A DNA stretch of 64,000 bases from Escherichia coli (GTDB lineage Bacteria > Pseudomonadota > Gammaproteobacteria > Enterobacterales > Enterobacteriaceae). Each line of letters starts with the position of its first letter. The first letter of the stretch is position 1. The translations under genes were made by a program, and so were the position numbers. Positions 11,501 through 27,788 of this stretch are shown one piece after another. The DNA lies in the NCBI RefSeq assembly GCF_003018255.1, contig NZ_CP027440.1; one strand, written 5' to 3'. The notes below the pieces were generated by a model, which worked only from the letters and a program-made list of their open reading frames with translations, did no database searches and was not told the DNA's origin.

Positions 11501-11542
11501 AAAATCCAACATAGCTAAAAATAATCAGGCGAGTGGTATGAC

Positions 11543-12268
11543 TTAAATCTCTACGTCGCGGTTGCAATCTTTCGAGTAAATATAGCTGAACGCTTCACCA
11601 CGCCCTACGCCATAACCAGCCTGTAAAGAATAAGCGCCCATAAAGATGTAATCGCCTTTTTTCACCGGGATCCAGTTATTGTCGAGGTTATAAACCCCCT
11701 GACCGGAAAGAATATAGGCACCGTGTTCCTGAACGTGGGTTTCGATATAACCGTGGCTGGCACCTGGTGCAAAAGAGAGGATATGCATGTTCATATCAAA
11801 ACCTAACTCTTTGGGCAGAAAATCCAGCAGAATAACATCGTCCATGCCTTCATAATGAATGCGTTCCAGTTCGCTGGCATTGCCAGAAACCAGCCACGGC
11901 GCATGACCTTCTACCGGAATATAGCGACGCTTATATAAAAAGATTTGGCTGTCTTCGGCCTGGGCGTTAACAAACGTCATTAAGGAGCCTGGCGGGCAAT
12001 AAAGATAGCCACCTTCACTTAAGGTAAATGTTTTCCCTTCGGCTTTGGCAGTGATATTTCCAGAGATCACATACAGGAACGTTTCAATGCCTTCGCCACC
12101 GAAGCCCTGTTGGTTGCCGCCGTTTTGATGCAGTGTGACCAGATAATCAACAAAAGAGGCACCCAGCTTTGGCGTGGAGAGGATTGTCGCGTCACAATTT
12201 TCAAAGCCCGGAATAATATTTTTTACCAGACCGTCTGGTGTTAACAGTGCGAAATTACCGTGTTTCAC
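11543..12268 (-). CDS. allE: (S)-ureidoglycine aminohydrolase (cupin)
   Basis: 241-aa ORF from GTG at 12268; the in-frame upstream extension reads KGYLNNVTGYREDLLANRAI preceded by TAA, i.e. no ATG at the position of the longer annotated form I recall. Confidence 0.8.
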   Translation of the reverse strand: MKHGNFALLTPDGLVKNIIPGFENCDATILSTPKLGASFVDYLVTLHQNGGNQQGFGGEGIETFLYVISGNITAKAEGKTFTLSEGGYLYCPPGSLMTFVNAQAEDSQIFLYKRRYIPVEGHAPWLVSGNASELERIHYEGMDDVILLDFLPKELGFDMNMHILSFAPGASHGYIETHVQEHGAYILSGQGVYNLDNNWIPVKKGDYIFMGAYSLQAGYGVGRGEAFSYIYSKDCNRDVEI

Positions 12269-12453
12269 AATCGCACGGTTAGCCAGTAAATCTTCGCGGT
12301 AACCGGTGACGTTATTTAAATATCCCTTTTATCAAATAGTGTTTTTTGCTGTTTCATAATGTTTCAGGTCGTTCATTATGTTTTTGATTATCAACGGATT
12401 TGCCATTTTTCTTGTTTCAGCTTGTTTCACGTTGTAGCGCTTTGTGCAACGAT

Positions 12454-12479
12454 CGGTGTAGTTAATGGTGTAGTCAATT
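12454..12479. repeat. attL core of the satellite
   Basis: cggtgtagttaatggtgtagtcaatt identical to 26414-26439; imperfect similarity extends ~30 bp to the left on both copies. Confidence 0.8.
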
Positions 12480-13730
12480 GTGATGACCGGAATCAAAATT
12501 ATGAGCAGAGCACTTAACAAACTGAGTGACACACAGCTAAGGAAAATCAACGGCACACCCGCCCAAAAAACAGCCTTTCTTAATGACGGTGGAAACCTGA
12601 GCGTCAGGCATTCAACCAGCGGCCTTTTAACCTGGTATTTCACATACAGGGCCGGAACGGGAAGAGGGACACAACCTGAACGCGTTAAGCTGGGAAATTA
12701 TCCCGATCTGAGCCTGAAAGCAGCCAGGGAAAAAGCCGCACAGTGTCGCGCATGGCTGGCTGAGGGGAAAAATCCACGCTATGAACTGAATTACACCATG
12801 CAGGAAGCGTTAAAGCCTGCAACGGTTGGCGATGCGCTCACCTACTGGCTTGAGTCGTACGCAAAGGAAAAGCGCACAGATTACGAATCACTGAAAAGCC
12901 GGATCAATAAAAACATAATCATCAAAATTGGTGCTATGCCGCTGGATAAATGCGAGCTACGGCACTGGCTGGCCTGTTTTGATCAGGTGGCAAAGCGAAC
13001 ACCTGTTACTGCCGGATTCTTGCTACAGACATGCAAACAGGCGCTTAAATTCTGCCGTAGGCGGCGCTATGCAATCAGCAACGTTCTGGACGATCTGAAC
13101 GTGGCGGACGTTGGGAAAAAACCGGATATAAGCGAACGTGTCTTAAGCACCAAAGAACTGGGCGAGTTATTGCAGGCGCTGGATAAAAAAATATTTTCTC
13201 CTTACTACGTCGCGTTAATCCGCCTCCTGATTGTCTTCGGAGCCAGGACGGTAGAACTGAGGTTATCGGAGATCAGCGAGTGGGATTTTACCGAAATGCT
13301 ATGGACCGTTCCGAAGGAGCACAGCAAAACGAAGGTTGCAATATTCCGGCCCATACCGGAAGCGATCCTGCCGTTCGTCACGCGGCTGGTGGAGCAGAAC
13401 AGGCACACGGGCTTATTACTGGGGGAAGTGAAACAGGAGGCTAGCGTATCGCAGTACGGCAGATTAGCGCACAGGAGGCTAAAACACCTTCAATGGTCAT
13501 TGCATGACATCCGGCGCACCTTTACAACGATGCTGAATGATTTGGGCGTGGATCCTCACGTCGTGGAGCAGCTTACAGGTCATCAGATGCCAGGGATGCA
13601 ACGAGTCTATAACCACTCCCGTTATCTCGATGCGAAACGTGATGCGCTGGATATGTGGACGGAGCGGTTAGGGATACTGGCGGGAGCACATGAAAACGTA
13701 ACCACGCTACCAGTAACCAGAATAAAATAA
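12480..13730 (+). CDS. int: Tyrosine recombinase / integrase (P4-like)
   Basis: 416-aa ORF abutting attL; C-terminal catalytic region (HDIRRTF...RYLD) typical of phage integrases. Confidence 0.85.
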   Translation: MMTGIKIMSRALNKLSDTQLRKINGTPAQKTAFLNDGGNLSVRHSTSGLLTWYFTYRAGTGRGTQPERVKLGNYPDLSLKAAREKAAQCRAWLAEGKNPRYELNYTMQEALKPATVGDALTYWLESYAKEKRTDYESLKSRINKNIIIKIGAMPLDKCELRHWLACFDQVAKRTPVTAGFLLQTCKQALKFCRRRRYAISNVLDDLNVADVGKKPDISERVLSTKELGELLQALDKKIFSPYYVALIRLLIVFGARTVELRLSEISEWDFTEMLWTVPKEHSKTKVAIFRPIPEAILPFVTRLVEQNRHTGLLLGEVKQEASVSQYGRLAHRRLKHLQWSLHDIRRTFTTMLNDLGVDPHVVEQLTGHQMPGMQRVYNHSRYLDAKRDALDMWTERLGILAGAHENVTTLPVTRIK

Positions 13731-14094
13731 TTTTTTTCGTGTTTTTTCAGTATGCGCATACTGGATAAGTGCACAGATACAACGTGAAACAATGTGCAAC
13801 AACGTGACACAATCATGAACAAGAGGCCAAAAAGAATACAGATTTATAAGTTACTGATTTTTATTGCTCAACTGGTTTTTTATACATTAGCGAATTACGC
13901 GTTAAAGCGTGCGAAAAAAGGCATAAAACAAGATTTTATGCCTTTGTATTAACATGAATTTAAATGATTTTATCCTGATTATTCCTCTTTCTGTAAACCA
14001 TACGACATCAACATTTGCCATTCACCACACTAGCGGGAACAATACGACACAATAAGACACCTGATGACTCTTTAAGAAACGAAAGGGGGCAATA

Positions 14095-14283
14095 GTGTTA
14101 AGCACTGATCGGTTTATACGTGAAAAAGAATGCGAAAAGCTAACAGGCCTTAGCCGCTCATGCCGCTACCGCCTGGAAAAGGCCGGACAATTCCCATCAC
14201 GTCGTAAACTTGGCGGGCGTTCTGTTGGCTGGTCTTTATCTGAGGTTTTGGCCTGGAAGGATAGCTGCAAGGCAGTTCACTAA
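14095..14283 (+). CDS. alpA: AlpA-family transcriptional regulator / excisionase-like protein
   Basis: 62-aa ORF (GTG start) with AlpA-type HTH signature LTGLSRS..Y.L...G.FP...LG.RSVGW..SEV..W. Confidence 0.7.
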   Translation: MLSTDRFIREKECEKLTGLSRSCRYRLEKAGQFPSRRKLGGRSVGWSLSEVLAWKDSCKAVH

Positions 14284-14423
14284 AAAGACTGGCGGCACAC
14301 AGTCGCCACACATCCACTAATACAGAGATATAACTATGAAGATTGAATATGCGCCCGAACGTGGGCGGGGATTCGTTCGCCCTGGTGAAACTGAAAAACA
14401 ACAAAATTGGGGTTTTTCAGGCA

Positions 14424-14453
14424 TAAAAAAAGCGGCCCCGATATGGAGCCGCC
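14424..14453 (-). terminator. Putative intrinsic terminator for the leftward RHH transcript
   Basis: Minus-strand hairpin GCGGC-11 nt-GCCGC followed by U7. Confidence 0.4.
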
Positions 14454-14781
14454 TTTCTGAACAATTAACCTGCTGCGCCTTATGTGTATGTGATCCCAAA
14501 CATAAGCACGGGGATGATAGCCGCTATCAGGCTGGTGGGCAATTCCTGTTTTGTCCGTATTGCGCCGCCATTTTCGCTCGTTCAGAGCGCGAATATTTTT
14601 TTAGAAACTCATCAAGGACAAAAGCGCATGGTGCGAATCTTTCTGATTCATGCTCGAGCGCCATATTTTCGTGCTCTCTGTTCGTTTTTTGCGATGGTGT
14701 ATCGCTTGATTCTTTGTTGGTCATTGTGTGTACCTGTAAAGCAATGCGCCGTAGTACCTCACACCACGGCGCTGATAGTTT

Positions 14782-14913
14782 TTATCCTTTGGGGTCTATG
14801 CCGCGCCGCTTTAGTTCAGTGCGCCCCAACTCTTTAAGCCAGTTGGCTAGGCTTATGCCGTCGCTCTGTGCTTCTTTGTCGAATTGCTCTTTTAGCTCTG
14901 GAGAAATTCGCAT
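14782..14913 (-). CDS. Small ribbon-helix-helix (CopG/Arc-like) DNA-binding protein, candidate satellite repressor
   Basis: MRISPELKEQFDKEAQSDGISLANWLKELGRTEL... within ORF 14782-15054; transcribed divergently from the early operon; start codon uncertain, weak RBS. Confidence 0.4.
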   Translation of the reverse strand: MRISPELKEQFDKEAQSDGISLANWLKELGRTELKRRGIDPKG

Positions 14914-14966
14914 TCTGAATTGTGGGGATTGCCCGTCCCCTTTAGGGCTTTTATCGCGTTTGATTG

Positions 14967-15017
14967 TTGACAAGTGGCCACCTATTAAATTAGCCTTTCT
15001 ATTGTTAGGTGGCCACC
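14967..15017. promoter_or_regulatory. Candidate operator/promoter region: two GTGGCCAC palindromes flanking a TTGACA
   Basis: TTGACA at 14967-14972; palindromes GTGGCCAC (14974-14981) and GGTGGCCACC (15008-15017), 34 bp apart, between the divergent RHH gene and the rightward early genes. Confidence 0.45.
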
Positions 15018-15030
15018 TTAACACAAGAGC

Positions 15031-15077
15031 ACTTAAAAAAGCAAAGCCCCGCAAGTGCCATTACCACTCGCAGGGCT
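15031..15077 (-). terminator. Minus-strand intrinsic terminator; candidate 3' end of an antisense RNA
   Basis: On the minus-strand RNA a 13-bp stem (agcccugcgagug / cacuugcggggcu, two G-U pairs) with a 7-nt loop is followed by UUGCUUUUUU; on the plus strand the same stem has two C-A mismatches. Confidence 0.45.
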
Positions 15078-15106
15078 TCTAACCAACAACGTAAACGAGG
15101 AGCCGT

Positions 15107-15308
15107 TATGGTTGCCGTAAATCATATACCACACCTTGTACACACACAAACTGCCTTTGTGTGGCGTTTTCTGGCCCTGAGTGCCGGAGAATCTCAAATC
15201 ATCCACGTAACCGCCTGGACGGAACGCGAAGCGCGTAACCGTTGCCCGTCCGGTTGTGTTGCTGTATTTGCCGCCCGTATTCGTCAGGGGGAAACCTATG
15301 CACAATAA
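15107..15308 (+). CDS. Small hypothetical protein, possibly Icd-like
   Basis: MVAVNHIPHLVHTQTAFVWRFLALSAGESQIIHVTAWTEREARNRCPSGCVAVFAARIRQ; the Icd-like assignment is by recalled similarity only. Confidence 0.35.
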
Positions 15309-15528
15309 AACCACACCGGACGCAGCAGAAGAAGCAATGCAAATACTGATACGTGCGCTCGTTGATGTTACCCACATGGTGGAGATTATGGAGAGAAAAT
15401 CACAGTCGGAGCACGACAAAAGAAAACTTAAAACAATAAAAATAATTGCCAAAAACTCGCTGATAAAAGTTACAGACATCCTTAATGAGGACATTAAAAG
15501 AATAAGGGAGAAAATTTGTGATGCATAA
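15298..15528 (+). CDS. Hypothetical small protein (AT-rich cargo gene 1)
   Basis: 76 aa from ATG 15298 (MHNKTTPDAAEEAMQ...); overlaps the next gene by 11 bp; locally AT-rich. Confidence 0.35.
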   Translation: MHNKTTPDAAEEAMQILIRALVDVTHMVEIMERKSQSEHDKRKLKTIKIIAKNSLIKVTDILNEDIKRIREKICDA

Positions 15529-15748
15529 AATCCCTTTTGAAGTATTAATCCACTCTGAAAACGCATTAATTAAAGCACGCGAAATGAATGCGTTGTTAAT
15601 TAAATTAATTGAAGTGCCGGAAGGTGGTGAGGAATCAGGTGTATTAATGTTTGCAGCCATTCAGACATTACTATCGCCTGTTATTGATGAACTGGATAAG
15701 GCAATGGCAATTCACGAAAATAATAACGCGCCCCACACCGGAGAATAA
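15518..15748 (+). CDS. Hypothetical small protein (AT-rich cargo gene 2)
   Basis: 76 aa; start overlaps the previous ORF, suggesting translational coupling. Confidence 0.35.
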   Translation: MMHKIPFEVLIHSENALIKAREMNALLIKLIEVPEGGEESGVLMFAAIQTLLSPVIDELDKAMAIHENNNAPHTGE

Positions 15749-15753
15749 AAATA

Positions 15754-16053
15754 ATGAAACTTAAATATTCTGGCTTAACTGCCAGTGGCAAAACTCGCAC
15801 TAAATTCATGCGCGGTGATATTTACCGCGACCAGTACGGCGGCACGGTAATGATTAAGGGCGTGGAGGAACGGCGCGTAACTTACCGCCGTGAAGGTTAC
15901 GAATATGATTGCGTGATGCCCGTTTATCAGTTCGACCGTGATTTTTCTCTGGTGCAGGCAGCGCAACGCAGCAAGCCCACCAGCAGGGAGAAAGCACGCG
16001 CCAATATTCAGGAAATAAAAAAGATGCTTAACGTATTCAGGGGTAAAAAATGA
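15754..16053 (+). CDS. Hypothetical protein
   Basis: 99-aa ORF whose stop overlaps the primase start (ATGA). Confidence 0.4.
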   Translation: MKLKYSGLTASGKTRTKFMRGDIYRDQYGGTVMIKGVEERRVTYRREGYEYDCVMPVYQFDRDFSLVQAAQRSKPTSREKARANIQEIKKMLNVFRGKK

Positions 16054-17804
16054 AACTGGCACCGAACGTAAAACAGCAGTCACGCGGCATAAAACACAAA
16101 GAAACAGAAGTCATTATTTTTGCGGGTAGTGATGCCTGGTCACACGCAAAACAATGGCAGGAACATGACGCGCGTATGGCCGGAGATAATGAGCCTCCTG
16201 TGTGGCTTGGGGAGCAGCAGTTATCAGAACTGGATAAGCTGCAAATTGTGCCGGAAGGCAGAAAATCCGTGCGCATATTCAGGGCCGGATATCTTGCACC
16301 AGTAATGATAAAGGCGATTGGTCAAAAGCTGGCGGCGGCTGGTGTACAGGATGCAAATTTTTATCCTGAGGGTATGCACGGCAAGGAGGTGCAGAACTGG
16401 CGCGAATACCTGGCCCGTGAACGCCAGAATCTTTCTGATGGTCTGGTCATTGAGCTTCCGGTAAAGCAAAAGGCGCAACTTTCGCAGATGGCGGACAGTG
16501 AGCGCGCGCAGCTGCTTGCCGATCGCTTTGATGGCGTTTGCGTACATCCTGAAAGTGAAATTGTTCACGTATGGCGCGGCGGGGTATGGTGTCCGGTCAG
16601 CACAATGGAACTTAGCCGCGAAATGGTGGCGATCTATTCAGAGCACAGGGCCACTTTCAGCAAGCGCGTAATCAATAACGCCGTGGAAGCGTTAAAAGTT
16701 ATTGCCGAACCAATGGGCGAGCCGTCCGGCGATTTGCTGCCGTTCGCCAATGGTGCGCTTGACCTGAAAACGGGGGAATTTTCCCCGCACACGCCGGAGA
16801 ACTGGATCACCACGCACAACGGCATTGAGTACACGCCACCAGCACCAGGGGAGAATATCCGCGACAACGCGCCAAACTTTCATAAATGGCTTGAGCACGC
16901 AGCCGGAAAAGACCCGCGCAAGATGATGCGTATATGTGCCGCGCTGTACATGATTATGGCGAACCGGTACGACTGGCAGATGTTTATTGAGGCCACCGGA
17001 GACGGCGGGAGCGGTAAAAGTACATTCACACACATAGCCAGCCTTCTGGCAGGGAAACAGAACACGGTAAGCGCTGAAATGACATCGCTTGATGATGCTG
17101 GTGGACGTGCGCAGGTTGTCGGGAGTCGTCTTATCGTCCTGGCTGACCAGCCGAAATATACAGGCGAAGGAACGGGCATCAAGAAAATCACGGGCGGCGA
17201 CCCCGTGGAAATTAACCCGAAATATGAGAAGCGTTTTACGGCGGTAATCAGGGCGGTGGTGCTGGCTACCAACAATAACCCGATGATATTCACCGAACGG
17301 GCCGGAGGTGTGTCACGTCGTCGCGTAATTTTCCGTTTCGACAATATCGTCAGTGAGGCCGAAAAAGACAGGGAGCTACCGGAAAAGATTGCGGCTGAAA
17401 TCCCTGTCATTATCCGCCGATTGCTGGCGAACTTTACCGACCCTGAGAAGGCACGGGCTTTACTACTGGAACAGCGTGACGGTGATGAAGCTCTGGCAAT
17501 AAAGCAACAGACGGATCCGGTTATTGAGTTTTGCCAGTTCCTGAATTTTCTGGAGGAAGCACGCGGCCTGATGATGGGCGGCGGTGGCGATTCAGTGAAG
17601 TACACGACCAGGAACAGCCTTTACCGCGTCTATCTGGCGTTTATGGCATACGCAGGCAGGAGCAAACCGCTAAACGTGGCTGAGTTCAGCAAGGCCATGA
17701 AGCCAGCGGCGAAAGTTTACGGGCATGAATATATTACGCGAAAAGTTAAGGGAGTAACGCAGACCAACGCAATTACAACAGACGATTGCGACGCGTTTTT
17801 ATAA
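16050..17804 (+). CDS. Replication protein: P4-family primase / D5-like SF3 helicase
   Basis: 584 aa with Walker A GDGGSGKST; domain architecture of satellite pri-rep proteins; iterons immediately downstream. Confidence 0.8.
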   Translation: MKLAPNVKQQSRGIKHKETEVIIFAGSDAWSHAKQWQEHDARMAGDNEPPVWLGEQQLSELDKLQIVPEGRKSVRIFRAGYLAPVMIKAIGQKLAAAGVQDANFYPEGMHGKEVQNWREYLARERQNLSDGLVIELPVKQKAQLSQMADSERAQLLADRFDGVCVHPESEIVHVWRGGVWCPVSTMELSREMVAIYSEHRATFSKRVINNAVEALKVIAEPMGEPSGDLLPFANGALDLKTGEFSPHTPENWITTHNGIEYTPPAPGENIRDNAPNFHKWLEHAAGKDPRKMMRICAALYMIMANRYDWQMFIEATGDGGSGKSTFTHIASLLAGKQNTVSAEMTSLDDAGGRAQVVGSRLIVLADQPKYTGEGTGIKKITGGDPVEINPKYEKRFTAVIRAVVLATNNNPMIFTERAGGVSRRRVIFRFDNIVSEAEKDRELPEKIAAEIPVIIRRLLANFTDPEKARALLLEQRDGDEALAIKQQTDPVIEFCQFLNFLEEARGLMMGGGGDSVKYTTRNSLYRVYLAFMAYAGRSKPLNVAEFSKAMKPAAKVYGHEYITRKVKGVTQTNAITTDDCDAFL

Positions 17805-17817
17805 TTTTTTGTAAAAG

Positions 17818-18044
17818 CCCTCTACCCCATCTACCTGAATGAAGTAAACGCATATTATTCAACATGATAAGTGGGTAGAGGGCTAGGTAGAAGGCTAATA
17901 AAAGCTCTCTACCCCTTCTACCTGATTTTATCAGTTTCAGGTAGCAGGGTAGACGGCAGGTAGAGGAGCCCAAAAAGCTATCTACCCGCTGAAAGCCGCG
18001 CCATTACTGACATGATGAGCATTCGGGTAGATGGGTAGAGGGGG
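17818..18044. repeat. Iteron-type replication origin
   Basis: At least 8 copies in both orientations of GGTAGA(G/T)GG / CC(C/T)CTACC with AT-rich spacers, directly after the primase-helicase gene. Confidence 0.6.
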
Positions 18045-18089
18045 GGGAGGCACAACTAAAAACTTTTTAAACGAGGGGGGGGAAAATAA

Positions 18090-18404
18090 ATGCGCATACA
18101 TCAAAATCACTTAACAAATATGCCAGCCGAAAACATGAATCAGGGGCGACAAATGACCAAAATTCGCAGAGACAGAACACAGGCAAAATATAAAGCGTTA
18201 GACATGACAGAGCTTTCCTTAAAGGTGGCAATCAAAGCGATAGACCACCACACACGGGCAGGATACGCGAAGGAACATCCCGACCTGATAAGCGCATTCA
18301 TGACCACGGCGGCGGCAAACTTTGCCACGTTGACAGAACGTGAGATTGCCGAAGCGGAACAGGTAACAACCATCAACGTTAAAACCGGAGAGGTGGAATC
18401 ATGA
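18090..18404 (+). CDS. Hypothetical protein
   Basis: 104-aa ORF; stop overlaps the ssb start (ATGA). Confidence 0.35.
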   Translation: MRIHQNHLTNMPAENMNQGRQMTKIRRDRTQAKYKALDMTELSLKVAIKAIDHHTRAGYAKEHPDLISAFMTTAAANFATLTEREIAEAEQVTTINVKTGEVES

Positions 18405-18811
18405 CAGCACAGATAGCCGCTTACGGGCGGCTGGTGGACGACCCGCAGGTAAAACAGACCAGCAAGGGCACACCGATGACGCTGGTTCGTATGGCGGTAT
18501 CGCTGCCATGCAGCCAGGCACATGACGGACAGGCGACGTTATGGTTATCGGTTATCGCATTTGGCAAACAGGCCGATTTCCTGGCTAAACATCAAAAAGG
18601 CGATGTTGCCAGCGTATCCGGCACGATGCAGGTAAGCCAGTGGACCGGACAGAACGGGGAAACGCGGCGGGGGTATCAGGTTATTGCAGACAGCGTAATC
18701 AGTGCCCGCGCGGCACGTCCAGGCGGGAACAGACGCAAAACCACAGGCACACAGGGTAATCAGCCACCAGCGGGAGGCGATGACCCTTACGGTGACGGTA
18801 TTCCGTTCTGA
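18401..18811 (+). CDS. ssb: Single-stranded DNA-binding protein
   Basis: 136 aa; Gly/Pro-rich linker and acidic C-terminal tail DDPYGDGIPF resembling the SSB D-I-P-F tip. Confidence 0.6.
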   Translation: MTAQIAAYGRLVDDPQVKQTSKGTPMTLVRMAVSLPCSQAHDGQATLWLSVIAFGKQADFLAKHQKGDVASVSGTMQVSQWTGQNGETRRGYQVIADSVISARAARPGGNRRKTTGTQGNQPPAGGDDPYGDGIPF

Positions 18812-18821
18812 GGGGGTGACG

Positions 18822-19070
18822 ATGGTACATGACCGCATAGCGGAGGAACTCGAGGCAAAAGGCTTTTACCGGAGGGCGTCGGCGCGATGGGGTGAAGTCA
18901 TGCAACTGGTGGAGACAGACAAGGAACGGCATCAGGTTACGATGCGACGGCTGGAATGTTCCAGGAAGGCACAGAGGCCACCGGAGCCGCCAACGGAGAA
19001 CTACGCAGACCTGAGAAATGCAGTAAATCGCACTTACGCAGACATGGGGCTGAGCAAATTAGCAGAGTAG
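18822..19070 (+). CDS. PerC-family transcriptional regulator (putative)
   Basis: MVHDRIAEELEAKGFYRRASARWGEVM... matches the PerC-type AEELE.KG.WRRA..RW motif; start chosen at ATG 18822. Confidence 0.45.
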   Translation: MVHDRIAEELEAKGFYRRASARWGEVMQLVETDKERHQVTMRRLECSRKAQRPPEPPTENYADLRNAVNRTYADMGLSKLAE

Positions 19071-19092
19071 GAATATCAGAACCACACCACGC

Positions 19093-19125
19093 AGCCGGAG
19101 CAATCCGGCTTTTTGTTATTTTTTG
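19093..19125 (+). terminator. Intrinsic terminator after the PerC-like gene
   Basis: Hairpin agccgga-gcaa-tccggct followed by TTTTTGTTATTTTTT. Confidence 0.55.
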
Positions 19126-19336
19126 TAAATTATTTGTTCGTGGTTGTTCCACGTTGTTCACTGAGCGGATCGGCATATTTTACCCGAACTGAATCATGAT
19201 TATTCTCGCCCGTGGTGCCAGGACGCTGGGGCCACTTTCCCGCCTGTTAATGTGCTCGCCAATATTCATTACCAGGCGGGAAAACGATCGGTGCGATTGC
19301 TGATTTCCTTATGAAAAACGGTTGAGTGTTTGCCGC

Positions 19337-19374
19337 GTCCTGGAGTTCCTTACTTAACCCCAGGACTTTTTTTT
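19337..19374 (+). promoter_or_regulatory. Hairpin plus T8 tract abutting the capsid start codon
   Basis: 7-bp stem gtcctgg/ccaggac (16-nt loop) followed by eight T that run directly into ATG 19375; no SD sequence. Confidence 0.4.
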
Positions 19375-20532
19375 ATGCCGAGAATAATCGAATTACGCCA
19401 GCAGAAAACCGCCATTAAAAATCAGATGCGCGACATGCTGGAGAACGCTGAAAAAGAAAACCGCAGTCTTAACGATGCTGAGGGCGCAAAATTTGACGAA
19501 TTACGCGCTAAAGCTGAATCCCTCGATAAAGACATTTCCCGCCTTGAAGCCATTGCAGACGAAGAGCGCAGCAAGCCAGGTAAAAGCAGCCAGACCACTG
19601 ACCCCGCAGAACTACGCAGCTACATTCTGACAGGTGAAACCCGCGCATTAAGTACAGGCGTTCCCGCTGATGGTGGTTATACCGTTATCCCCGAACTGAA
19701 CACCGAAATCATGCGAATGCTGGCGGATGAATCCACCATGCGCCGCATCTGTACCGTGAAAAAAATCAGCAGCAACGAGTTTAAGCAGCTTGTTTCCGCT
19801 GGCGGTGCGACCGTTAACCACGGTGAAGAGGGTAAGGCACGCGAACAGACCAGCACCCCGCAGATTAACGAGGTGAGCATTAAGCTGTATCCGGTCTATG
19901 CGTACCCGCGCACCACACAGGAAATCGTGGATTTTTCCGATGTGGACATCCTTTCATGGCTGACGGGTGAGATTGGCGACACCTTCACGGAAACCGAAGA
20001 AAGCGATCTGGTTGTGGGCGACGGTGACAAAAAAGCAAAAGGTTTTTTATCCGTACCCCGTGCAGAGAAGAACGACAAAGAGCGTGATTTTGGTACGTTG
20101 CAGGTAATTAAACCTTCCGAATCTCTGGCGTGGACATCTGCGGACCCGCTGATCGACCTGAAATTTGCATTACGTAAAAAATACCGCAAAAACGCGGTCT
20201 GGGTGGTTAACTCCACGACGGCGGCAAAACTCCAGAAGGTGAAGAACGCGAACGGTGATTACATCTGGCGTGACCGTTTACAGGCGGGTGATCCTGATAC
20301 GTTGCTGGGCCTTCCGGTCGAATATCTGGAGTTTATGCCTGATAACGTTATTGCCCTGGGTGACTTCAAACGCGGTTACTACATTGTTGATCACGAAACA
20401 GGTGTTCGCACCAGACCGGACAACCTCACAGAGCCGGGCTTCATCAAAATTTTCACGCAGAAATATTTAGGCGGTGGCGTGGTGGATTCGAACGCGATCA
20501 AGATTCTGGAACTGCCACAGGACGACGATTAA
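19375..20532 (+). CDS. Major capsid protein (HK97 fold) with N-terminal coiled-coil scaffold-like region
   Basis: ORF 19330-20532 (TTG) trimmed to ATG 19375 (MPRIIELRQQKTAIKNQ...). Confidence 0.8.
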   Translation: MPRIIELRQQKTAIKNQMRDMLENAEKENRSLNDAEGAKFDELRAKAESLDKDISRLEAIADEERSKPGKSSQTTDPAELRSYILTGETRALSTGVPADGGYTVIPELNTEIMRMLADESTMRRICTVKKISSNEFKQLVSAGGATVNHGEEGKAREQTSTPQINEVSIKLYPVYAYPRTTQEIVDFSDVDILSWLTGEIGDTFTETEESDLVVGDGDKKAKGFLSVPRAEKNDKERDFGTLQVIKPSESLAWTSADPLIDLKFALRKKYRKNAVWVVNSTTAAKLQKVKNANGDYIWRDRLQAGDPDTLLGLPVEYLEFMPDNVIALGDFKRGYYIVDHETGVRTRPDNLTEPGFIKIFTQKYLGGGVVDSNAIKILELPQDDD

Positions 20533-20543
20533 CAGCATACAGA

Positions 20544-20571
20544 AGGGGCTTAAAAGCCCCTTTAGTGTTTT
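20544..20571 (+). terminator. Putative terminator between capsid and protease genes
   Basis: Hairpin aggggctt-aa-aagcccct followed by TTAGTGTTTT. Confidence 0.45.
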
Positions 20572-21144
20572 ATGGGTGAAAAAATTATGAAGAGTATGGA
20601 AATCCGGTCATCGGAAATCACCACCAGCGGAGCCGGTACGCTGACGGGCTACGTTGTTCGCTGGGATAAGCTTTCAGAACTGTTATGGGGTGAGTTTTAC
20701 GAAAAATTCCAGCGGGGGGCGTTTACTGAATGGCTTGCGGCGGGTAATGACGTTCGCGGCCTGTATGAGCATGACCACAGCATGTTACTGGGGCGCACCC
20801 GTTCCGGCACGCTGAAACTGGAAGAGGACGAAACAGGGTTACGCTTTGAACTGACCCCACCGGATACCAGTACAGGGCGCGACGTTATCGAACTGGTTAA
20901 GCGTGGGGACATCTCGGGGATGAGCTTTGGCTTTCGCTCCCGTAAGGATGTATGGGATACCACAACAGATCCATGCGTGCGCACCGTGCTGGTGGCGGAA
21001 CTGTACGAAATTACCGTTACATCGGTACCGGCTTACCCCGATTCCGGCGTGGAGCTGGCCCGCCGTTCCCTGTATGAGCAGCACCCCGAAAAAATGCCGC
21101 GTGCGGATAATCGCCGCTGGTGGGTGGATTTAGCGGGGGTGTGA
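20572..21144 (+). CDS. Prohead maturation protease (HK97 family)
   Basis: 190-aa ORF following the capsid gene; length and position fit a prohead protease. Confidence 0.75.
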   Translation: MGEKIMKSMEIRSSEITTSGAGTLTGYVVRWDKLSELLWGEFYEKFQRGAFTEWLAAGNDVRGLYEHDHSMLLGRTRSGTLKLEEDETGLRFELTPPDTSTGRDVIELVKRGDISGMSFGFRSRKDVWDTTTDPCVRTVLVAELYEITVTSVPAYPDSGVELARRSLYEQHPEKMPRADNRRWWVDLAGV

Positions 21145-21145
21145 T

Positions 21146-22357
21146 ATGTGGCCTTTCAGAAGAAAAAAAGAGCAGCGCAGCATGACGCTTGATAAGTTTA
21201 TGGCGCTGGCTGGCACATCGAACACGGGGGCGGGTGAGTACGTATCATCGGGGACAGCGGAATCACTGCCCGCCGTCATGAACGCCGTGACGGTCATCTC
21301 TGAGGCGGTGGCTACCATGCCGTGTTACCTGTACCTGGTACGCAATGAGAAGGGGAAGGAGGCCCGCGAGTGGCTTGATTCTCATCCGGTCGATCACATC
21401 CTCAACGAGCGCCCGAACGCGTGGCAGACTCCCTACCAGTTTAAGCGAATGATGATCCGCCACTGCCTGTTAAACGGTAATGCTTATGCGGTGATTCAGT
21501 GGGGGCGTGATGGTTTTCCGGTGGCTTTACATCCTTACCCGCCGCAGTCGGTGAACGTGGAGCAGACAGGTGATCATAACTGGCGCTACTGCATCACTGA
21601 CGCCTACACCGGAAACACCCGCAACTATTTACCGTGGGAGGTTCTCCACCTTCGTTACTCCACGGATGACGGTTTTATGGGGCGCTCACCTGTAACCATC
21701 TGCCGCGAATCGCTGGGGCTTGGGCTGGCCCAACAACGCCACGGCGCGAGCGTGATGCGTGATGGCATGATGGCGGCAGGGGTTATCACGTCAGGCGAAT
21801 GGCTGGACGGCGTGAAGGGCAAACAGGCATTAGCCGCACTGGAACGCTACAAAGGGGCCAGAAACGCCGGAAAAACGCCCATCCTTGAAGGGGGGATGAG
21901 CTATCAGCAGCTGGGCATGAGTAATCAGGATGCCGAATGGCTGGCCTCCCGTCGCTTCACCATTGAAGACATCGCCCGAATGTTCAACGTCTCGCCGATT
22001 TTTTTGCAGGAATACAGCAACAGCACCTACAGCAACTTCAGCGAGGCAAGCCGCGCATTTCTCACCATGACGATGCGCCCGTGGCTGGCGAACTTTGAGC
22101 AGCAGATAAAAAACGCCCTGCTGGTGGCCTCGCCTGTACCTGGTATCCGGTATCAGGTGGAGTTTGACAGCGCGGACCTGTTACGGGCCACACCTGGCGA
22201 ACGCTTTGCCACCTATGAACGCGGCATCAAATCCGGCGTTATGTGCCCGAACGAAGCCCGCGAACGTGAAGGGCTGTCCCCGCGTGATGGTGGTGATGAG
22301 TTCAGCCAGGCATGGAAACAGGAAGTAAAAATCAGCGAGGGAGAAAAACCGGAATGA
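21146..22357 (+). CDS. Portal protein
   Basis: 403-aa ORF in the head module; portal-like by length and position. Confidence 0.8.
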   Translation: MWPFRRKKEQRSMTLDKFMALAGTSNTGAGEYVSSGTAESLPAVMNAVTVISEAVATMPCYLYLVRNEKGKEAREWLDSHPVDHILNERPNAWQTPYQFKRMMIRHCLLNGNAYAVIQWGRDGFPVALHPYPPQSVNVEQTGDHNWRYCITDAYTGNTRNYLPWEVLHLRYSTDDGFMGRSPVTICRESLGLGLAQQRHGASVMRDGMMAAGVITSGEWLDGVKGKQALAALERYKGARNAGKTPILEGGMSYQQLGMSNQDAEWLASRRFTIEDIARMFNVSPIFLQEYSNSTYSNFSEASRAFLTMTMRPWLANFEQQIKNALLVASPVPGIRYQVEFDSADLLRATPGERFATYERGIKSGVMCPNEAREREGLSPRDGGDEFSQAWKQEVKISEGEKPE

Positions 22358-22692
22358 ACATAGGGCGACTGCGTGACAGGATAACGATTCAGACCCTGAA
22401 ACAGACCAGGGATATAACCGGCGAAATACTCGAAACGTGGGAGGACGGTCACACACTCTGGGCAAGCGTGAACATGGTCAGCAGCAAGGAGGCCATTTCA
22501 TCGGGCGCAGAGCTGGCGATTGGTACCGTAAGGATCTGGATACGGTACCGGAAGGACATCAACGCCACCTGCCGGATAAAGGTCAGTACGGGGCCGCTGG
22601 CGGGGCGTGTACTGAATATCATCGGGCAGCCGCTGCCGGATGCCGCCAGGACACGCCTTGAAATTCTTTGTCGTGAGGGCGCGGAAAAATGA
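22354..22692 (+). CDS. Head-tail adaptor / head closure protein
   Basis: ATG 22354 overlaps the portal stop (ATGA); MNIGRLRDRITIQ... Confidence 0.55.
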   Translation: MNIGRLRDRITIQTLKQTRDITGEILETWEDGHTLWASVNMVSSKEAISSGAELAIGTVRIWIRYRKDINATCRIKVSTGPLAGRVLNIIGQPLPDAARTRLEILCREGAEK

Positions 22693-22985
22693 CAGAAGAA
22701 CTTATCACCCTGGAAGAAGTGAAACTCCATTGCCGCATCGATGGCGACGATGAAGACCAGTTAATCAGCGGATACATTGCCGCATCGCTTGAGGCGTGCC
22801 AGATACACATAGGCAGGCGCTTTGATGACGGGCTGGAGTTCACGCCAGCCATAAAGATTGGCTGCATGATGTTTATCGCTCACCTGTATGAAAATCGCCA
22901 GATTGTCGCGGATAACGCAAAAACACGCGTACCCATGACGATAGGCGCACTCTGGACGGCTTACCGTGATGTGGGGGTGTACTGA
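22689..22985 (+). CDS. Head-tail connector (gp6-like)
   Basis: 98 aa; overlapping stop/start with neighbours on both sides. Confidence 0.55.
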   Translation: MTEELITLEEVKLHCRIDGDDEDQLISGYIAASLEACQIHIGRRFDDGLEFTPAIKIGCMMFIAHLYENRQIVADNAKTRVPMTIGALWTAYRDVGVY

Positions 22986-23425
22986 TGCCGTGGCAACCAT
23001 TAAGACGATGCACAGAACCAGGCTGTAACAGGCGCGTTAAATCCGGCAAGTGTGAGGAGCACAGGCGGGCGGCATGGCGTGCAGAGGATGCCAGACGAGG
23101 ACACCGCCGCGCGCGTGGATATTCCAGACAGTGGGACAAATACCGCGCCATGTATCTGAGTAAAAACCCGTTATGCGTGCGATGCCTTGAGAAGGGGATA
23201 TATACGCCCGCCGTGGTGGTGGATCACATTATCCCGATTAATGGCGGTGATGATGTTCTCTTCTGGCCCGAATGGAACCATCAACCATTGTGCCAGGCGT
23301 GTCATAACCAGAAAACGAAATGGCTTGATCCGGCAACAAAAAGCAAGCGTGCCGCAGGTGGATTTCGTGAAGAGGAAGAACGGGCTGCTAACCGCAATAA
23401 CTGGATGTATGACGCTGATGAATGA
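22985..23425 (+). CDS. HNH endonuclease (packaging-associated)
   Basis: Cys-rich zinc-finger and HNH motifs (CVRCLEKG...VDHIIPINGG...CQACHNQKT); sits upstream of terS/terL as in cos-packaging HK97-like systems. Confidence 0.8.
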   Translation: MPWQPLRRCTEPGCNRRVKSGKCEEHRRAAWRAEDARRGHRRARGYSRQWDKYRAMYLSKNPLCVRCLEKGIYTPAVVVDHIIPINGGDDVLFWPEWNHQPLCQACHNQKTKWLDPATKSKRAAGGFREEEERAANRNNWMYDADE

Positions 23426-23591
23426 GCGGGAACAAAACCGCCTTATCCGTGGACTTATAAGGCAGCGTGACGCATGGAAGACACAGGAAACAGGGCATAA
23501 AGATAAAGCGTCAGGACGCGCAGAACGCATCACAGCGAAGCGATTAACCGACCGTGACCGCGAGGTTATGGAATGTTTCCGCAATCGCTGA
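23420..23591 (+). CDS. Hypothetical small protein
   Basis: 57-aa reading frame MNEREQNRLIRGLIRQRDAWK... between HNH and terS; may not be expressed. Confidence 0.25.
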
Positions 23592-23713
23592 TGAGGCTGT
23601 ATGACGGGGTGGGGGGCGTTTTCAGGACAAACCCGACCCCGCCGGGCACCGAACGCCTCCTCAAATTTTTATGCACGGGAATTTTTTGAAAAATAATCTG
23701 GCGAAAAATAAGC

Positions 23714-24070
23714 ATGGCAAGACCACCGAAAGCCCCCGCCTACCTGGATGATATCGCCGTGAAGCAGTGGCGGGAAAAATCTAGGCAGCTTGCGGAACGG
23801 GGAGACCTGACCCCCGCCGACTGGAGCAATCTGGAACTGTATTGTGTCAACTACTCCATTTACCGGAAAGCCGTTGCAGACCTTGCGGCGCGCGGGTTCA
23901 GCATTGTTAACAGTCAGGGCGGCGAGAGCAGAAACCCCGCATTAAGCGCAAAATCCGACGCTGAAAGAGTGATGATAAAAATGGCCTCTTTGCTCGGTTT
24001 TGACCCGATAAGCCGCCGTAAAAATCCACCGGAAACAGAAGAAGAGGACGAGCTTGACCGCCTGGAATAA
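23714..24070 (+). CDS. terS: Terminase small subunit (P27 family)
   Basis: 118 aa, MARPPKAPAYLDDIAVKQWRE...; overlaps the terL start. Confidence 0.75.
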   Translation: MARPPKAPAYLDDIAVKQWREKSRQLAERGDLTPADWSNLELYCVNYSIYRKAVADLAARGFSIVNSQGGESRNPALSAKSDAERVMIKMASLLGFDPISRRKNPPETEEEDELDRLE

Positions 24071-25715
24071 GTACGCAGAAGACGTAAAAACGGGCAAAAT
24101 TCCGGCCTGTAAACGGCTGAAACAGGCCGTTAAACGGTACTTTTCGGACCTTGAAAGCCCCCTTTACACGTTCGATCGTGAGGTTGTGGAGCGGTTTATT
24201 GCCTTTTCCAGGGTGTGCCCGCACGTAAAAGGGCCGATGCGTGGCAGACCCATTGAGCTGGAGCCGTGGCAGCAGTTCGCCTTTGCGTGCATCCTCGGCT
24301 TTAAGGTTAAGGCCACCGGACGGCGCAAATACACGAGCGCCTTTATCGAAGTGCCGCGCAAAAATGCGAAATCCACGACCGCCGCGATTCTGGCTAACTG
24401 GTTTCTGATTATGGAGAACGGGCAGCAGGATATTTACACCGCAGCGGTGAGCCGTGACCAGGCGCGGATCGTTTTTGATGATGCGCGTCAGATGTGCCTT
24501 TTATCCCGACCGTTACGCAGGCGGGTGAATATTCAGGCCCACAAGGTGATGCACCCGAAAAGCAACAGCCTGTTAAAGCCGCTGGCAGCAAAAGCGGCAA
24601 CCATCGAGGGAACAAACCCCAGCCTTTCCATCGTGGACGAATACCACCTACACCCCGATAACGGCGTTTATTCCGCGCTTGAGCTGGGGATGGGCGCACG
24701 TCCCGAAGGGCTGTTATTTGCCATTACCACATCGGGCAGTAACGTCGTTTCAACCTGTAAACAGCACTATGATTATTGCTGCCAGATCCTGGACGGCGAA
24801 GAGGTCAACGATTCAATTTTTGTGCTGATTTACGAGCTGGACGACGAAAACGAGGTTGATGATCCGGCGATGTGGATAAAGGCTAACCCTAACATCGATG
24901 TTTCCGTGGATCGTGAAAAACTGGCCTCAACCATCCAGAAAGCGCGGGGTATTCCGTCGCAATGGGTGGAGATGATGACAAAGCGATTTAATATCTGGTG
25001 CCAGGGGGCTACCCCGTGGATGGGTAACGGCGCATGGGCTGAGTGTGCCGGAACGTTCACGGAGGAAGATTTACACGGGCAGGAGTGTTACGCGGGGCTG
25101 GACTTATCATCAACCAGCGATATTTCCAGCGTGTGCTATGCCTTTCCGGTCGGTAAAAATATCATGCTGGTTTCCCGTCATTATCTGCCGGAGTTCCAGC
25201 TACAGAACCCCGCCAATAAAAACCGCGCTGTCTATCGCCAGTGGGCTAAAGCGGGCTGGATACGCACAACGCCAGGTGACTGCATTGATTACGACCGGAT
25301 CAGAGATGACATCATGCAGGATGCGGAGAAATTTAATATCAGGCTGGTGGGCTTTGATACGTGGAACGCCACGCATCTCAGGACGCAATTACAGGGGGCT
25401 GGTTTTGAGGTGGAGCCGTTCCCGCAAACCTACCTCAGATTCAGTCCGGCGGCGAAATCGTTCGAAGTTTTTGTTAACCGCAGGGTGATTGTGCATCGTG
25501 GCGATCCGGTGTTGTCCTGGTCGATGAGTAACGTCGTGATGCAGAGTGACGCGAACGCCAATATCAAGCCGAACAAGAAAAAATCACCGAACAAGATAGA
25601 CCCGAGCGTAGCGGCGCTGATGGCGTTTGGTACATTCCAGGCAGAGCATGAGGATTTTGCTTTTGATATAAGCGACAGCCACCGCCAGAAACTGGAAGAA
25701 TTTAGCGGGGTGTAA
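24054..25715 (+). CDS. terL: Terminase large subunit
   Basis: 553 aa with ATPase and nuclease regions; final large gene before attR. Confidence 0.85.
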   Translation: MTAWNKYAEDVKTGKIPACKRLKQAVKRYFSDLESPLYTFDREVVERFIAFSRVCPHVKGPMRGRPIELEPWQQFAFACILGFKVKATGRRKYTSAFIEVPRKNAKSTTAAILANWFLIMENGQQDIYTAAVSRDQARIVFDDARQMCLLSRPLRRRVNIQAHKVMHPKSNSLLKPLAAKAATIEGTNPSLSIVDEYHLHPDNGVYSALELGMGARPEGLLFAITTSGSNVVSTCKQHYDYCCQILDGEEVNDSIFVLIYELDDENEVDDPAMWIKANPNIDVSVDREKLASTIQKARGIPSQWVEMMTKRFNIWCQGATPWMGNGAWAECAGTFTEEDLHGQECYAGLDLSSTSDISSVCYAFPVGKNIMLVSRHYLPEFQLQNPANKNRAVYRQWAKAGWIRTTPGDCIDYDRIRDDIMQDAEKFNIRLVGFDTWNATHLRTQLQGAGFEVEPFPQTYLRFSPAAKSFEVFVNRRVIVHRGDPVLSWSMSNVVMQSDANANIKPNKKKSPNKIDPSVAALMAFGTFQAEHEDFAFDISDSHRQKLEEFSGV

Positions 25716-25728
25716 TGAGGTCAGCAGC

Positions 25729-26010
25729 ATGACAGAAGCCGAAATACTGCGATTAATCCGCCGCGTCTCTGGAATCAGCCAGCAGGCTGACGAACAGACC
25801 ACGCAGCCGGACAGCGTGACAGCCGAAAATTATGCGCGTGTTGTTGCTGAGGTGATGCGCCGTGATGGTATCCAGCTTAATGATGCGGATATGCGCGACA
25901 TACGGATCCGCGTTCTTGAAATGCTGGCCTACAATCGCCGTGTAGAGATGTACAGGGAGAAAGAGAAAATTACGTACAACTGGAAGAAGCCGGAGCGGTT
26001 ACGGCGGTAA
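25729..26010 (+). CDS. Hypothetical protein
   Basis: 93-aa ORF after terL. Confidence 0.4.
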   Translation: MTEAEILRLIRRVSGISQQADEQTTQPDSVTAENYARVVAEVMRRDGIQLNDADMRDIRIRVLEMLAYNRRVEMYREKEKITYNWKKPERLRR

Positions 26011-26012
26011 CG

Positions 26013-26082
26013 TGTTGATTTAAAGGCGGCTCAATTTTGAGCCTCGTAACTGGTTGATATTTCCGGCAACCTCAATTTGAGG
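26013..26082. repeat. Two tandem GTTGAT...CTCAATTTGAG palindrome units; candidate cos/packaging or operator site
   Basis: Unit 1 gtgttgatttaaaggcggctcaattttgagcc and unit 2 ggttgatatttccggcaacctcaatttgagg, ~40-bp period, in the 400-bp non-coding right end of the satellite. Confidence 0.4.
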
Positions 26083-26413
26083 AGAGCGGAAACATCATCC
26101 CTCACATTCTGAATGGTCATAATGACCACGCAGGCCATCGAGGCAACCATAGCGATCATCGTTACGGTTGGAGCTTTCCGCCATTGGTGGAAAAGGTGCA
26201 CATCTGGATCATCATTACGGTGATCAAGGGTATGTAAAACCCACCAGCCTGATTAAAGGTTAACCGGAAAAAAAATCCGGTAGCCCCGTTATGGGGATCC
26301 CCATATCGACATTAACGCCCCTCATGAATTGGTGCGCTTCCCCCTGGAAAGATTACCCGCCTGTATATTTCTTGTGTCTATTTGTTCCACGTTGTTTCAT
26401 ACAGTGCACCGAA

Positions 26414-26439
26414 CGGTGTAGTTAATGGTGTAGTCAATT
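26414..26439. repeat. attR core of the satellite
   Basis: Identical 26-mer to 12454-12479. Confidence 0.8.
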
Positions 26440-26531
26440 TGCGATTTTTGGCACTTTTTGTAGTGCGGGTTATTTAATTAAATCAATGTGTTATTGAAAA
26501 TAAGTTATAGATATATCCCATTTATAACTCC

Positions 26532-27767
26532 TTATTTCTGCCAGGCAAGTTGATAAAGCATGAGTGCCAACGTTTTGACCCCTTCGGCAAGGTCGGTAAT
26601 ATTGGTGCGTTCCGCCGGGTTATGGCTGATCCCGTTGATGCTGGGAATGAAAATCATGCAGGTCGGCACGCGAGGCGCGAAAATTTGCGCGTCGTGCCCG
26701 GCACCACTGTGCATTACCCGGTAGTTCTGTTTTTCACTTTCACACAATTCTGTCAGGGTGGCGACCAGCTCCTTATTCATCGGCACGGGTTCTTCGTCCA
26801 TCCATAAATCGATATCAATACCAATGTCCATTTCATCGCAAATCGCCCGCATGTCGTTTTCTAACTGCTGGGTGAAATCGCGCAGCACGGCAGCGTCGGT
26901 ATGACGACAATCAATGGTGAACGTGGTTTTACCCGGTACCACATTCACCGTATTCGGACGCGGCTCCACCTTGCCAAAGGTAAGCACCAGCGGGTCGCCC
27001 ATCTTTTTCGCTTTTTCGATCGACTGATGGCAAATGCGACTGAAAGCGTAAACCGTATCACGACGATAACCCATCGGCGTGGTGCCTGCATGGTTTGATT
27101 CGCCGTTCAGCGTCACCGTATAACGACGCTGCCCGACAATTGCATTCACCACGCCAATTGACTGCCCATTACTTTCCAGCACACAGCCCTGTTCGATATG
27201 CAGTTCGACAAAGGCTTTAATATCCTGACGCGGAGTTAGTGGGGCGTTCGGCAGAGTAAATCCGCAAGCCTTCATCGCATCGACAAAACTATTTCCTTTG
27301 GCATCACAGATATTCCGCACGTCGTCAGGATTCGCCAGCCCAAAGATATTTTTACTGCCCCAGAAGACATACGGGAAGCGGCTGCCTTCTTCTTCTGCCA
27401 TCGCCACCACTTCGACCGTACGTAACGGCGCGCCGTATTGCGTTTTCAGCCAGTCAATTGCCAGCCACGCCGCCAGCGCACCGAATTGCCCGTCGAGGTT
27501 ACCGCCGTTAACCACGGTATCGATATGCGAACCGCTCAGAACCACTTCCTGTGGATATTCGGTGCCACTCAGGCGACCGTATAAATTCCCCACTTCATCG
27601 AAACGTGTTTCCAGCCCGCTTGCTGCCATTCTTTTTTTAAACTGCTGCTGAGTTTCCAGCCATTCCGGCGAATAAAGTAAACGGGTCATCCCACCCGCTG
27701 GGTCAGCGCCAAAAGAGGAAAGCCAGGGCAGCGTTTCTTCTATGGCTTGACGGAAATGTGTAATCAT
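26532..27767 (-). CDS. allC: Allantoate amidohydrolase
   Basis: ORF 26532-27785 trimmed to the second ATG (MITHFRQAIEETLPWL); M20 peptidase family. Confidence 0.9.
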   Translation of the reverse strand: MITHFRQAIEETLPWLSSFGADPAGGMTRLLYSPEWLETQQQFKKRMAASGLETRFDEVGNLYGRLSGTEYPQEVVLSGSHIDTVVNGGNLDGQFGALAAWLAIDWLKTQYGAPLRTVEVVAMAEEEGSRFPYVFWGSKNIFGLANPDDVRNICDAKGNSFVDAMKACGFTLPNAPLTPRQDIKAFVELHIEQGCVLESNGQSIGVVNAIVGQRRYTVTLNGESNHAGTTPMGYRRDTVYAFSRICHQSIEKAKKMGDPLVLTFGKVEPRPNTVNVVPGKTTFTIDCRHTDAAVLRDFTQQLENDMRAICDEMDIGIDIDLWMDEEPVPMNKELVATLTELCESEKQNYRVMHSGAGHDAQIFAPRVPTCMIFIPSINGISHNPAERTNITDLAEGVKTLALMLYQLAWQK

Positions 27768-27788
27768 AAGAAAGTCCTGTCTCAATAA

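Follow-up and report, generated by a model that had tools for sequence, protein, structure and literature searches.

In a 64,000-nucleotide stretch of the Escherichia coli contig NZ_CP027440.1 (RefSeq assembly GCF_003018255.1; hereafter the window), we found that a 14,193-bp phage satellite (12327-26519) interrupts the first codons of allE, the gene for (S)-ureidoglycine aminohydrolase. Judged by its genes, the element is a satellite of the capsid-forming phage-inducible chromosomal island (cf-PICI) type. We consider it likely that this satellite was integrated at the allE start by its own integrase, that allE is silent or nearly so while it is in place, and that expression is restored on excision. 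In the mechanism we propose, the tyrosine integrase of the satellite would recombine at an attachment site (attB) that overlaps the allE start codon. Integration has left the Shine-Dalgarno (SD) sequence and ATG of allE with allC and has fused the remainder of allE to the left arm of the satellite (reading TGA TAA AAG); the resulting loss of expression would remove the enzymatic step from ureidoglycine to ureidoglycolate in allantoin use, and excision would regenerate the exact wild-type allC-allE junction.

The minus strand of the window carries, in this order, allD (ureidoglycolate dehydrogenase; 27789-28838; NCBIfam NF011599, 713 bits), allC (allantoate deiminase; 26532-27767; NF006768, 832 bits), the satellite and the body of allE (11543-12328; TIGR03214, 342 bits), whose codon 1 is now AAG. 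Both allD and allC are intact; allC lies in an open reading frame (ORF) spanning 26532-27785, and because the family profile begins at residue 7 its start is the ATG at 27767. An initial annotation of this DNA had proposed the same order, as well as the splitting of a contiguous allDCE gene set by the satellite, and both proposals held: NCBIfam, PHROGs and RefSeq homologues all support the order, and the genes are contiguous in K-12 and in the satellite-free strain Combat2C1, whose region is nearly identical to the window. In K-12 MG1655, 10 nt separate the end of the allC stop (544057) from the start codon of allE (544046), and AllE is annotated as a 261-residue protein that begins MGYLNN, with ATG GGA TAT TTA AAT as its first codons. 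Past codon 1 the allE frame of the window is intact, and a protein comparison revealed that its product differs from Combat2C1 AllE at codon 1 only. The rest of the allantoin cluster in the window is also intact.

Comparison of the junctions with K-12, Combat2C1 and 12 other occupied loci identified the crossover as a 7-bp direct repeat, ATATCCC, with one copy at the left junction (attL; 12320-12326, GGGATAT on the allE strand) and one at the right junction (attR; 26513-26519). On the plus strand, the left junction reads GACGTTATTTAA ATATCCC TTTTATCAAATAGTG, the right junction AAGTTATAGAT ATATCCC ATTTATAACTCCTTATTTCTGCC and the empty site GTTATTTAA ATATCCC ATTTATAACTCC; the corresponding attB sequence is GTTATTTAAATATCCCATTTATAAC and the predicted satellite attachment site (attP) is TTATAGATATATCCCTTTTATCAAATAG. 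The repeat is present as a single copy at the empty site in K-12 and Combat2C1, and more than 5,300 empty-site genomes likewise have one copy of it there. Read on the allE strand, it is G-GGA-TAT, i.e., the final base of the ATG followed by codons 2 and 3. The initial annotation had placed the insertion between allC and allE, which is correct for the gene order; the break itself falls within allE codons 1-3 and is not intergenic. It had also pointed to an alignment with a satellite-free junction as a check, and when we excised the satellite in silico (joining the sequence up to 12326 to that from 26520 onwards), the product matched Combat2C1 without a gap across 3,308 bp. Excision should thus restore allE, because the 7-bp overlap is identical at both junctions and the integrase and AlpA genes of the satellite are intact. 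On this sequence evidence, the insertional knock-out of allE is probably reversible.

The base next to the repeat decides the fate of the start codon: in the host it is A, which yields ATG, and in the invariant island end TTTTATCAA it is T, which yields AAG. At the former allE start (12326-12334), the minus strand reads TGA (12334-12332), TAA (12331-12329), AAG (12328-12326), GGA and TAT, with both in-frame stops contributed by the island end TTTTATCAA. The first in-frame ATG, GTG or TTG that remains to allE at attL is a GTG at 12268, codon 21. Since the break point lies in codons 1-3, the native SD and ATG were left attached to allC. This orphaned translation start (26483-26533, minus strand) comprises AAGGAG at 26533-26528 and an ATG at 26521-26519, directly past the allC stop, that opens a 12-codon ORF (MGYIYNLFSITH, then a stop) running into the island. 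Pairing with the 3' end of 16S rRNA was predicted at -8.8 kcal/mol for the orphaned ATG, and at +0.6 kcal/mol for the AAG, -2.4 for the CTG at codon 15 (CTG15) and -1.5 for the GTG at codon 21 (GTG21) at attL.

The allD, allC and allE genes have been described as one AllS-dependent operon driven from the allD promoter (PMC12535856, PMC10163214); allD is the first gene of this operon and the promoter, allDp, lies upstream of it. Genomic SELEX (systematic evolution of ligands by exponential enrichment) is additionally reported to have placed RNA-polymerase peaks for three minor sigma factors within the 3' part of K-12 allC, directed towards allE (also called ylbA) (PMC5493296); should these peaks represent genuine promoters, they too are now severed from allE. 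All of these signals lie upstream of the allE ATG, and hence now beyond 14 kb of satellite. A consensus scan detected no sigma-70-like site on the minus strand of 12327-13000, and the satellite genes are oriented opposite to allE. With no start codon, ribosome-binding site or promoter-like site at attL, allE would most likely be silent or nearly silent for as long as the satellite stays integrated. Much of this had been anticipated in the initial annotation. Its statement that allE is cut off from any allD-proximal promoter agrees with the 14 kb that now intervene, its observation that the annotated ATG is lost and replaced by an AAG after TAA was confirmed by direct reading of 12331-12326, and the next canonical start is, as it had said, a GTG (12268) with no SD. 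It had further held that the insertion would be neutral if the reference start were this GTG and allE had a promoter of its own in satellite-free strains. The K-12 start is the ATG and not the GTG, and any native promoter also lies upstream of that ATG and hence across the satellite from allE, so that this route to neutrality does not apply.

Two further features lie on either side of allE. A minus-strand ORF (12332-12643), antisense to the 5' end of the integrase gene, exits through the left arm and ends at the TGA just before TAA-AAG, in the allE frame; in tqsA-site islands, RefSeq has a 60-residue hypothetical protein at the same position (L001, 3002-3184). This ORF is probably spurious; if real, it would mark outward transcription. 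Downstream of allE, an Rfam scan of 10-30 kb of the window gave the enterobacterial small RNA STnc480 as its sole match (11470-11536, plus strand; 84 bits against a gathering threshold of 72), between glxK and the allE stop and surrounded by terminator-like hairpins on both strands.

We searched a 301-bp left-junction query and a right-junction query against 5,426 complete E. coli genomes. The left junction was fully covered in 12 genomes and the right junction in the same 12. All of these read AAG where the allE start should be and have the right end GTTATTGAAAATAAGTTATAGAT followed by ATATCCC. Where both ends could be located, the islands measure 10.4-14.9 kb, and cargo and host background differ among the occupied genomes. 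A metagenome contig from JGI (L013; SKEX01000731.1, 6319-7800) has the same left junction at allE and ends before the right junction, so that the right-end segment could be compared in 13 of the 14 allE-site islands examined and is common to all 13. Given the differing cargo, sizes and hosts, the allE site has been used repeatedly and is not a one-off. Two of the occupied genomes, LH50-c (L008, 16647-28300) and AR_0085 (L064), carry the same integrase and attachment module at allE with a different, non-capsid-forming PICI late module, consisting of a major capsid protein, a head decoration protein and a connector and lacking portal and terminase. The presence of two late-module types at allE means that this attB is common to classical and capsid-forming PICIs. 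Against this background, it is extremely unlikely that the arrangement arose in assembly or is the ancestral gene order, with no insertion involved. We found no support for either, and the attL and attR shared unchanged by 12 independent complete genomes, the attL in the metagenome contig, the flanking repeat that is single in more than 5,300 empty-site genomes, and the typical architecture of integrase, arms and attachment sites all speak against it. Of the features of a lambda-type attachment system, the island shows a shared core found once in the empty site, recurrent junctions, an integrase gene at one end and arm motifs on both sides.

The occupied loci also bear on whether allE is still expressed. 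We regard it as unlikely that the insertion is nearly neutral, with allE transcribed from a cryptic left-arm promoter or by read-through and translated from CTG15 or GTG21 into a shortened, active enzyme. In its favour, the NCBI Prokaryotic Genome Annotation Pipeline (PGAP) calls allE in the occupied RefSeq genomes as a 247-residue protein from the CTG at codon 15 (e.g., L004, 16364-17107) and does not flag it as a pseudogene in 11 of 12; in the remaining genome, AST85, a coding sequence of the same length is flagged as frameshifted. The PGAP call is driven by homology, however, and is no proof of translation. CTG starts are rare in E. coli, no SD precedes CTG15 or GTG21 (-2.4 and -1.5 kcal/mol, compared with -8.8 at the native start), two in-frame stops stand directly upstream, and the arm contains no promoter-like site on the minus strand. 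One occupied genome moreover has a frameshift in allE, and in four others a different gene of the allantoin cluster is damaged. Every gene of the cluster was checked by tblastn in the 12 occupied genomes and in 10 empty-site genomes taken at even steps down the ranking. A further inactivating lesion was present in five of the 12 occupied genomes (five of 13 with the window) and in one of the 10 empty-site genomes. In the occupied genomes (L008, L009, L064, L065 and L066) the lesions are an allW stop at codon 336 in LH50-c, a different allW stop at codon 139 in AST19, an allF-allG deletion in AR_0085, an allC stop in E300010 and the allE frameshift in AST85; the lesion-bearing control, strain C7, has an allS stop and a glxK frameshift. 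The excess is consistent with relaxed selection on the allantoin cluster, although it is suggestive only.

Several observations weigh against a silent, excision-restorable allE. By genome, and with the window included, the excess of lesions is not significant (Fisher two-sided p = 0.18), and collapsed to nine host backgrounds it is borderline (p = 0.057). The allE frame remains unbroken in the window, as it does in 12 of the 13 other occupied loci, which fits a recent insertion or a retained function. The TIGR03214 profile starts only at AllE residue 14, so a protein begun at CTG15, if produced at all, could have activity. The promoter scan relied on matching a simple consensus, and an outward promoter that is weak or not of the sigma-70 class may be present. 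Finally, the predicted attP junction had no match in IMG/VR or in the JGI metagenomes; a broader metagenome scan with the left arm gave 53 matches, of which 17 were genuine arms, all integrated (16 at roxA/phoQ and one at allE).

A different possibility is that the insertion is a selected reversible switch (i.e., active lysogeny), in which allE stays off until excision, at helper induction or in a particular physiological state, restores the use of allantoin nitrogen. We think this very unlikely. Virtual excision does yield what active lysogeny entails, a disrupted gene that precise excision would rebuild intact; the integrase and alpA genes are intact, the allE site is repeatedly used, and related helper-embedded PICIs interrupt genes until they excise (PMC10111431). 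Yet we found no link between excision and allantoin or nitrogen signals, degraded islands or secondary lesions of the cluster in several occupied genomes suggest decay, and no attP form was found in IMG/VR or the JGI metagenomes. PICI induction, moreover, normally goes together with lytic growth of the helper, which kills the cell.

The gene content of the element underlies its assignment as a cf-PICI-type satellite. The left arm (P'; 12327-12500) begins with TTTTATCAA; at 12455-12479 it has a doubled motif, GGTGTAGTTAATGGTGTAGTCAATT, that belongs to repeat family D2, and it also contains TGTTTCA repeats. These features are kept in islands at three different chromosomal sites. The integrase gene (12501-13730, plus strand, as are all genes that follow; 409 residues, intact; phrog_1, E 7e-73) begins 174 bp from the left end of the island, and its product shares 95% identity with the integrase encoded by other allE-site islands. 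An AlpA-type excisionase or regulator follows (14095-14283; phrog_2790, E 2e-17), and then a replication and regulation module (15754-19070), assigned from PHROGs and from the RefSeq annotation of homologous islands. This module includes a primase (16050-17804), a single-stranded DNA-binding protein (18401-18811), a PerC-like activator (18822-19070) and a homologue of a DUF4222 protein annotated in RefSeq islands; an Arc-like repressor ORF is present among the regulation genes of the island. The capsid and packaging module (19375-26010) encodes a major capsid protein, an HK97 protease, a portal, a head closure protein, an adaptor, an HNH protein, TerS, TerL and a 93-residue protein. Eight of these products match the corresponding PHROG families, with E values from 8e-35 for the head closure protein, the weakest, to 6e-179 for TerL, and RefSeq annotates homologous islands likewise. 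No tail or lysis PHROG matched among the scanned ORFs of at least 55 residues in 12327-26519, a set that covers the annotated genes of homologous islands.

The right arm (P; 26011-26512) contains the doubled motif at 26415-26439 and the site-specific segment GTTATTGAAAATAAGTTATAGAT at 26490-26512, a partial mimic of the allE sequence on the left side of the crossover. In both arms the doubled motif consists of two co-oriented copies of GGTGTAGTnAAT, ~144 and ~89 bp from the core, with TGTTTCA repeats beside them. The largest repeat of the region, 75 nt at 80% identity (12405-12479 and 26365-26439), was first taken as the attachment site; we rejected it because every related island, at whatever chromosomal site, has it within both arms, and it thus represents arm-type motifs.

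Published cf-PICIs span ~10-18 kb (10.1101/2025.02.11.637232), a range into which the 14,193 bp between the flanking repeats falls, and the integrase, regulation and replication modules follow the conserved cf-PICI order. PHROG matches without tail or lysis genes correspond to the cf-PICI gene content given in two reports (10.1101/2022.09.08.507074, 10.1101/2025.02.11.637232). The O157:H7 prototype, EcCIEDL933, has the same order of int, alpA, replication, capsid, protease, portal, connectors, HNH, TerS and TerL, and likewise no tail (10.1101/2022.09.08.507074). The integrase is 92% identical to that at the O157 strain TT12A locus, the left end TTTTATCAA and the arm motifs of the two islands are the same, and the packaging module has 92-100% nucleotide identity. 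The two differ in the core segment at the right end and in replication gene content, with a DUF927 protein there and a primase here, and they occupy different sites: the EcCIEDL933-type attB lies past the phoQ stop with the overlap GGACATA, whereas the window island lies at the allE start codon with the overlap ATATCCC. P4-like satellites likewise have an integrase and a primase-type replication protein and depend on a helper phage, as the window element probably does too. P4 is not known to encode a capsid, portal, protease or terminase of its own; the window element encodes all four, and we therefore do not class it as P4-like.

As a mode of insertion, this arrangement has several precedents. 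Insertional inactivation by temperate elements, under the headings of negative lysogenic conversion and active lysogeny, is known from Staphylococcus aureus phi13 in hlb and Listeria phi10403S in comK. Bacillus subtilis SPbeta occupies spsM (PMC13228054). As at allE, these elements integrate inside a coding sequence without supplying a replacement copy, and the gene is off until precise excision. Unlike them, the element described here is a satellite and not a phage, and its break in the first codons also removes the promoter and ribosome-binding site. Close parallels are the helper-embedded PICIs (Tommasini, Mageeney and Williams 2023, PMC10111431), which also have an intragenic target of a Gram-negative PICI tyrosine integrase, a gene interrupted until excision and a 7-bp crossover segment. 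Relative to the attP centre, their doubled, co-oriented motif is found 81 bp away on the upstream side and 132 bp away on the downstream side (PMC10111431), a layout shared by the window island (~89 and ~144 bp), with TGTATTGC as the motif there and GGTGTAGTnAAT here. Their target is a late gene of the helper prophage, in contrast to the host metabolic gene interrupted here. For E. coli cf-PICIs, the original description gives six attB sites, four of them common with classical PICIs (10.1101/2022.09.08.507074). None of the literature searched, which did not extend to the six-site list of the cf-PICI paper, names allE (ylbA) as an integration site for a PICI or prophage. The allE insertion adds one more site to a known mechanism; it does not amount to a system of a new kind.

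The integrase of the window belongs to a family (87-99% amino-acid identity) that occupies no fewer than three places in E. coli, one at the allE start, one within tqsA and one between phoQ and roxA. At each site, a 7-10-bp flanking repeat of its own stands beside the invariant island end TTTTATCAA (loci L001, L002, L004, L006 and L007), and the islands at tqsA and phoQ/roxA are 94-96% identical in nucleotides to the window island. In tqsA, which carries a pseudogene annotation, the insertion lies ~48 codons into the gene and has the repeat ATAACAGCA; the roxA/phoQ insertion, with the repeat GGACATA, lies just past the phoQ stop codon at a distance of 74 bp upstream of roxA, the position of the O157 EcCIEDL933-type island. 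The 25-30 bp before the right-end repeat are particular to each site and show a partial likeness to the host DNA on the left side of the crossover (26475-26519 in the window), so that the right-end segment and repeat fit a layout of core site, 7-bp overlap and core site. Comparison of 12327-26519 with loci L001, L002, L004 and L006-L009 revealed that the window island is a mosaic. Its attachment and integrase end is closest to allE-site islands (96-97%), and its packaging module has 97-100% nucleotide identity to the tqsA and roxA/phoQ islands and ~70-90% to most allE-site islands.

The integrases look mosaic as well, and across loci L013, L064 (AR_0085) and L007 (E110019) site choice does not track their similarity. 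Among themselves, the allE-site integrases share 90-95% identity. L013 sits at allE, yet its integrase matches one from the roxA/phoQ site at 97.3% identity and that of the window at only 91%, and the AR_0085 integrase behaves in the same way. In a small set of four allE-site integrases aligned column by column (window, E200086, L013 and AR_0085), A314 and A396 are the only residues that track the allE site, being common to all four. Residues 124-142 (KEKRTDYESLKSRINKNII) were considered as a site determinant and rejected, because AR_0085 and L013 carry the other type of this patch at allE. The right end shared by 13 of 14 islands, the identity of only 90-95% among allE-site integrases and the likeness of L013 to a roxA/phoQ integrase raise another account, in which the integrase would be largely permissive, the target would be set by a swappable attP core cassette of ~45 bp, and the allE insertion would switch off the anaerobic use of allantoin nitrogen until helper-phage induction. 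Such a cassette, made up of the 7-bp overlap and the partial host mimic, may redirect near-identical satellites among the 5' regions of allE, tqsA and roxA when swapped. Taken as a whole, we judge this account to be quite improbable. The three sites of the integrase family could serve as a test system for the contributions of attP core and integrase to target choice.

Elsewhere in the window (39688-63958), a tRNA-Arg(tct) gene at 40825 directly follows folD and is succeeded by ompT, a ybcH-like gene, nfrA and nfrB; after nfrB come an ISAs1 transposase, an Rhs/PAAR protein, VgrG and then cusS. Relative to the K-12 arrangement, the region appears to lack the sfm/fimZ genes and the greater part of a DLP12-type prophage, and it contains a small type VI effector island.

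A PICI attachment site that overlaps a start codon without providing a replacement sequence predicts a metabolic cost to the host. The PGAP start at CTG masks the fact that allE has lost its true start together with its ribosome-binding site and promoter, which is a warning for annotation at such sites. If allE is indeed silent while the satellite is integrated, 12 of 5,426 complete E. coli genomes are predicted to be impaired in enzymatic allantoin degradation, despite an allE that looks normal in the automated annotation of 11 of the 12.

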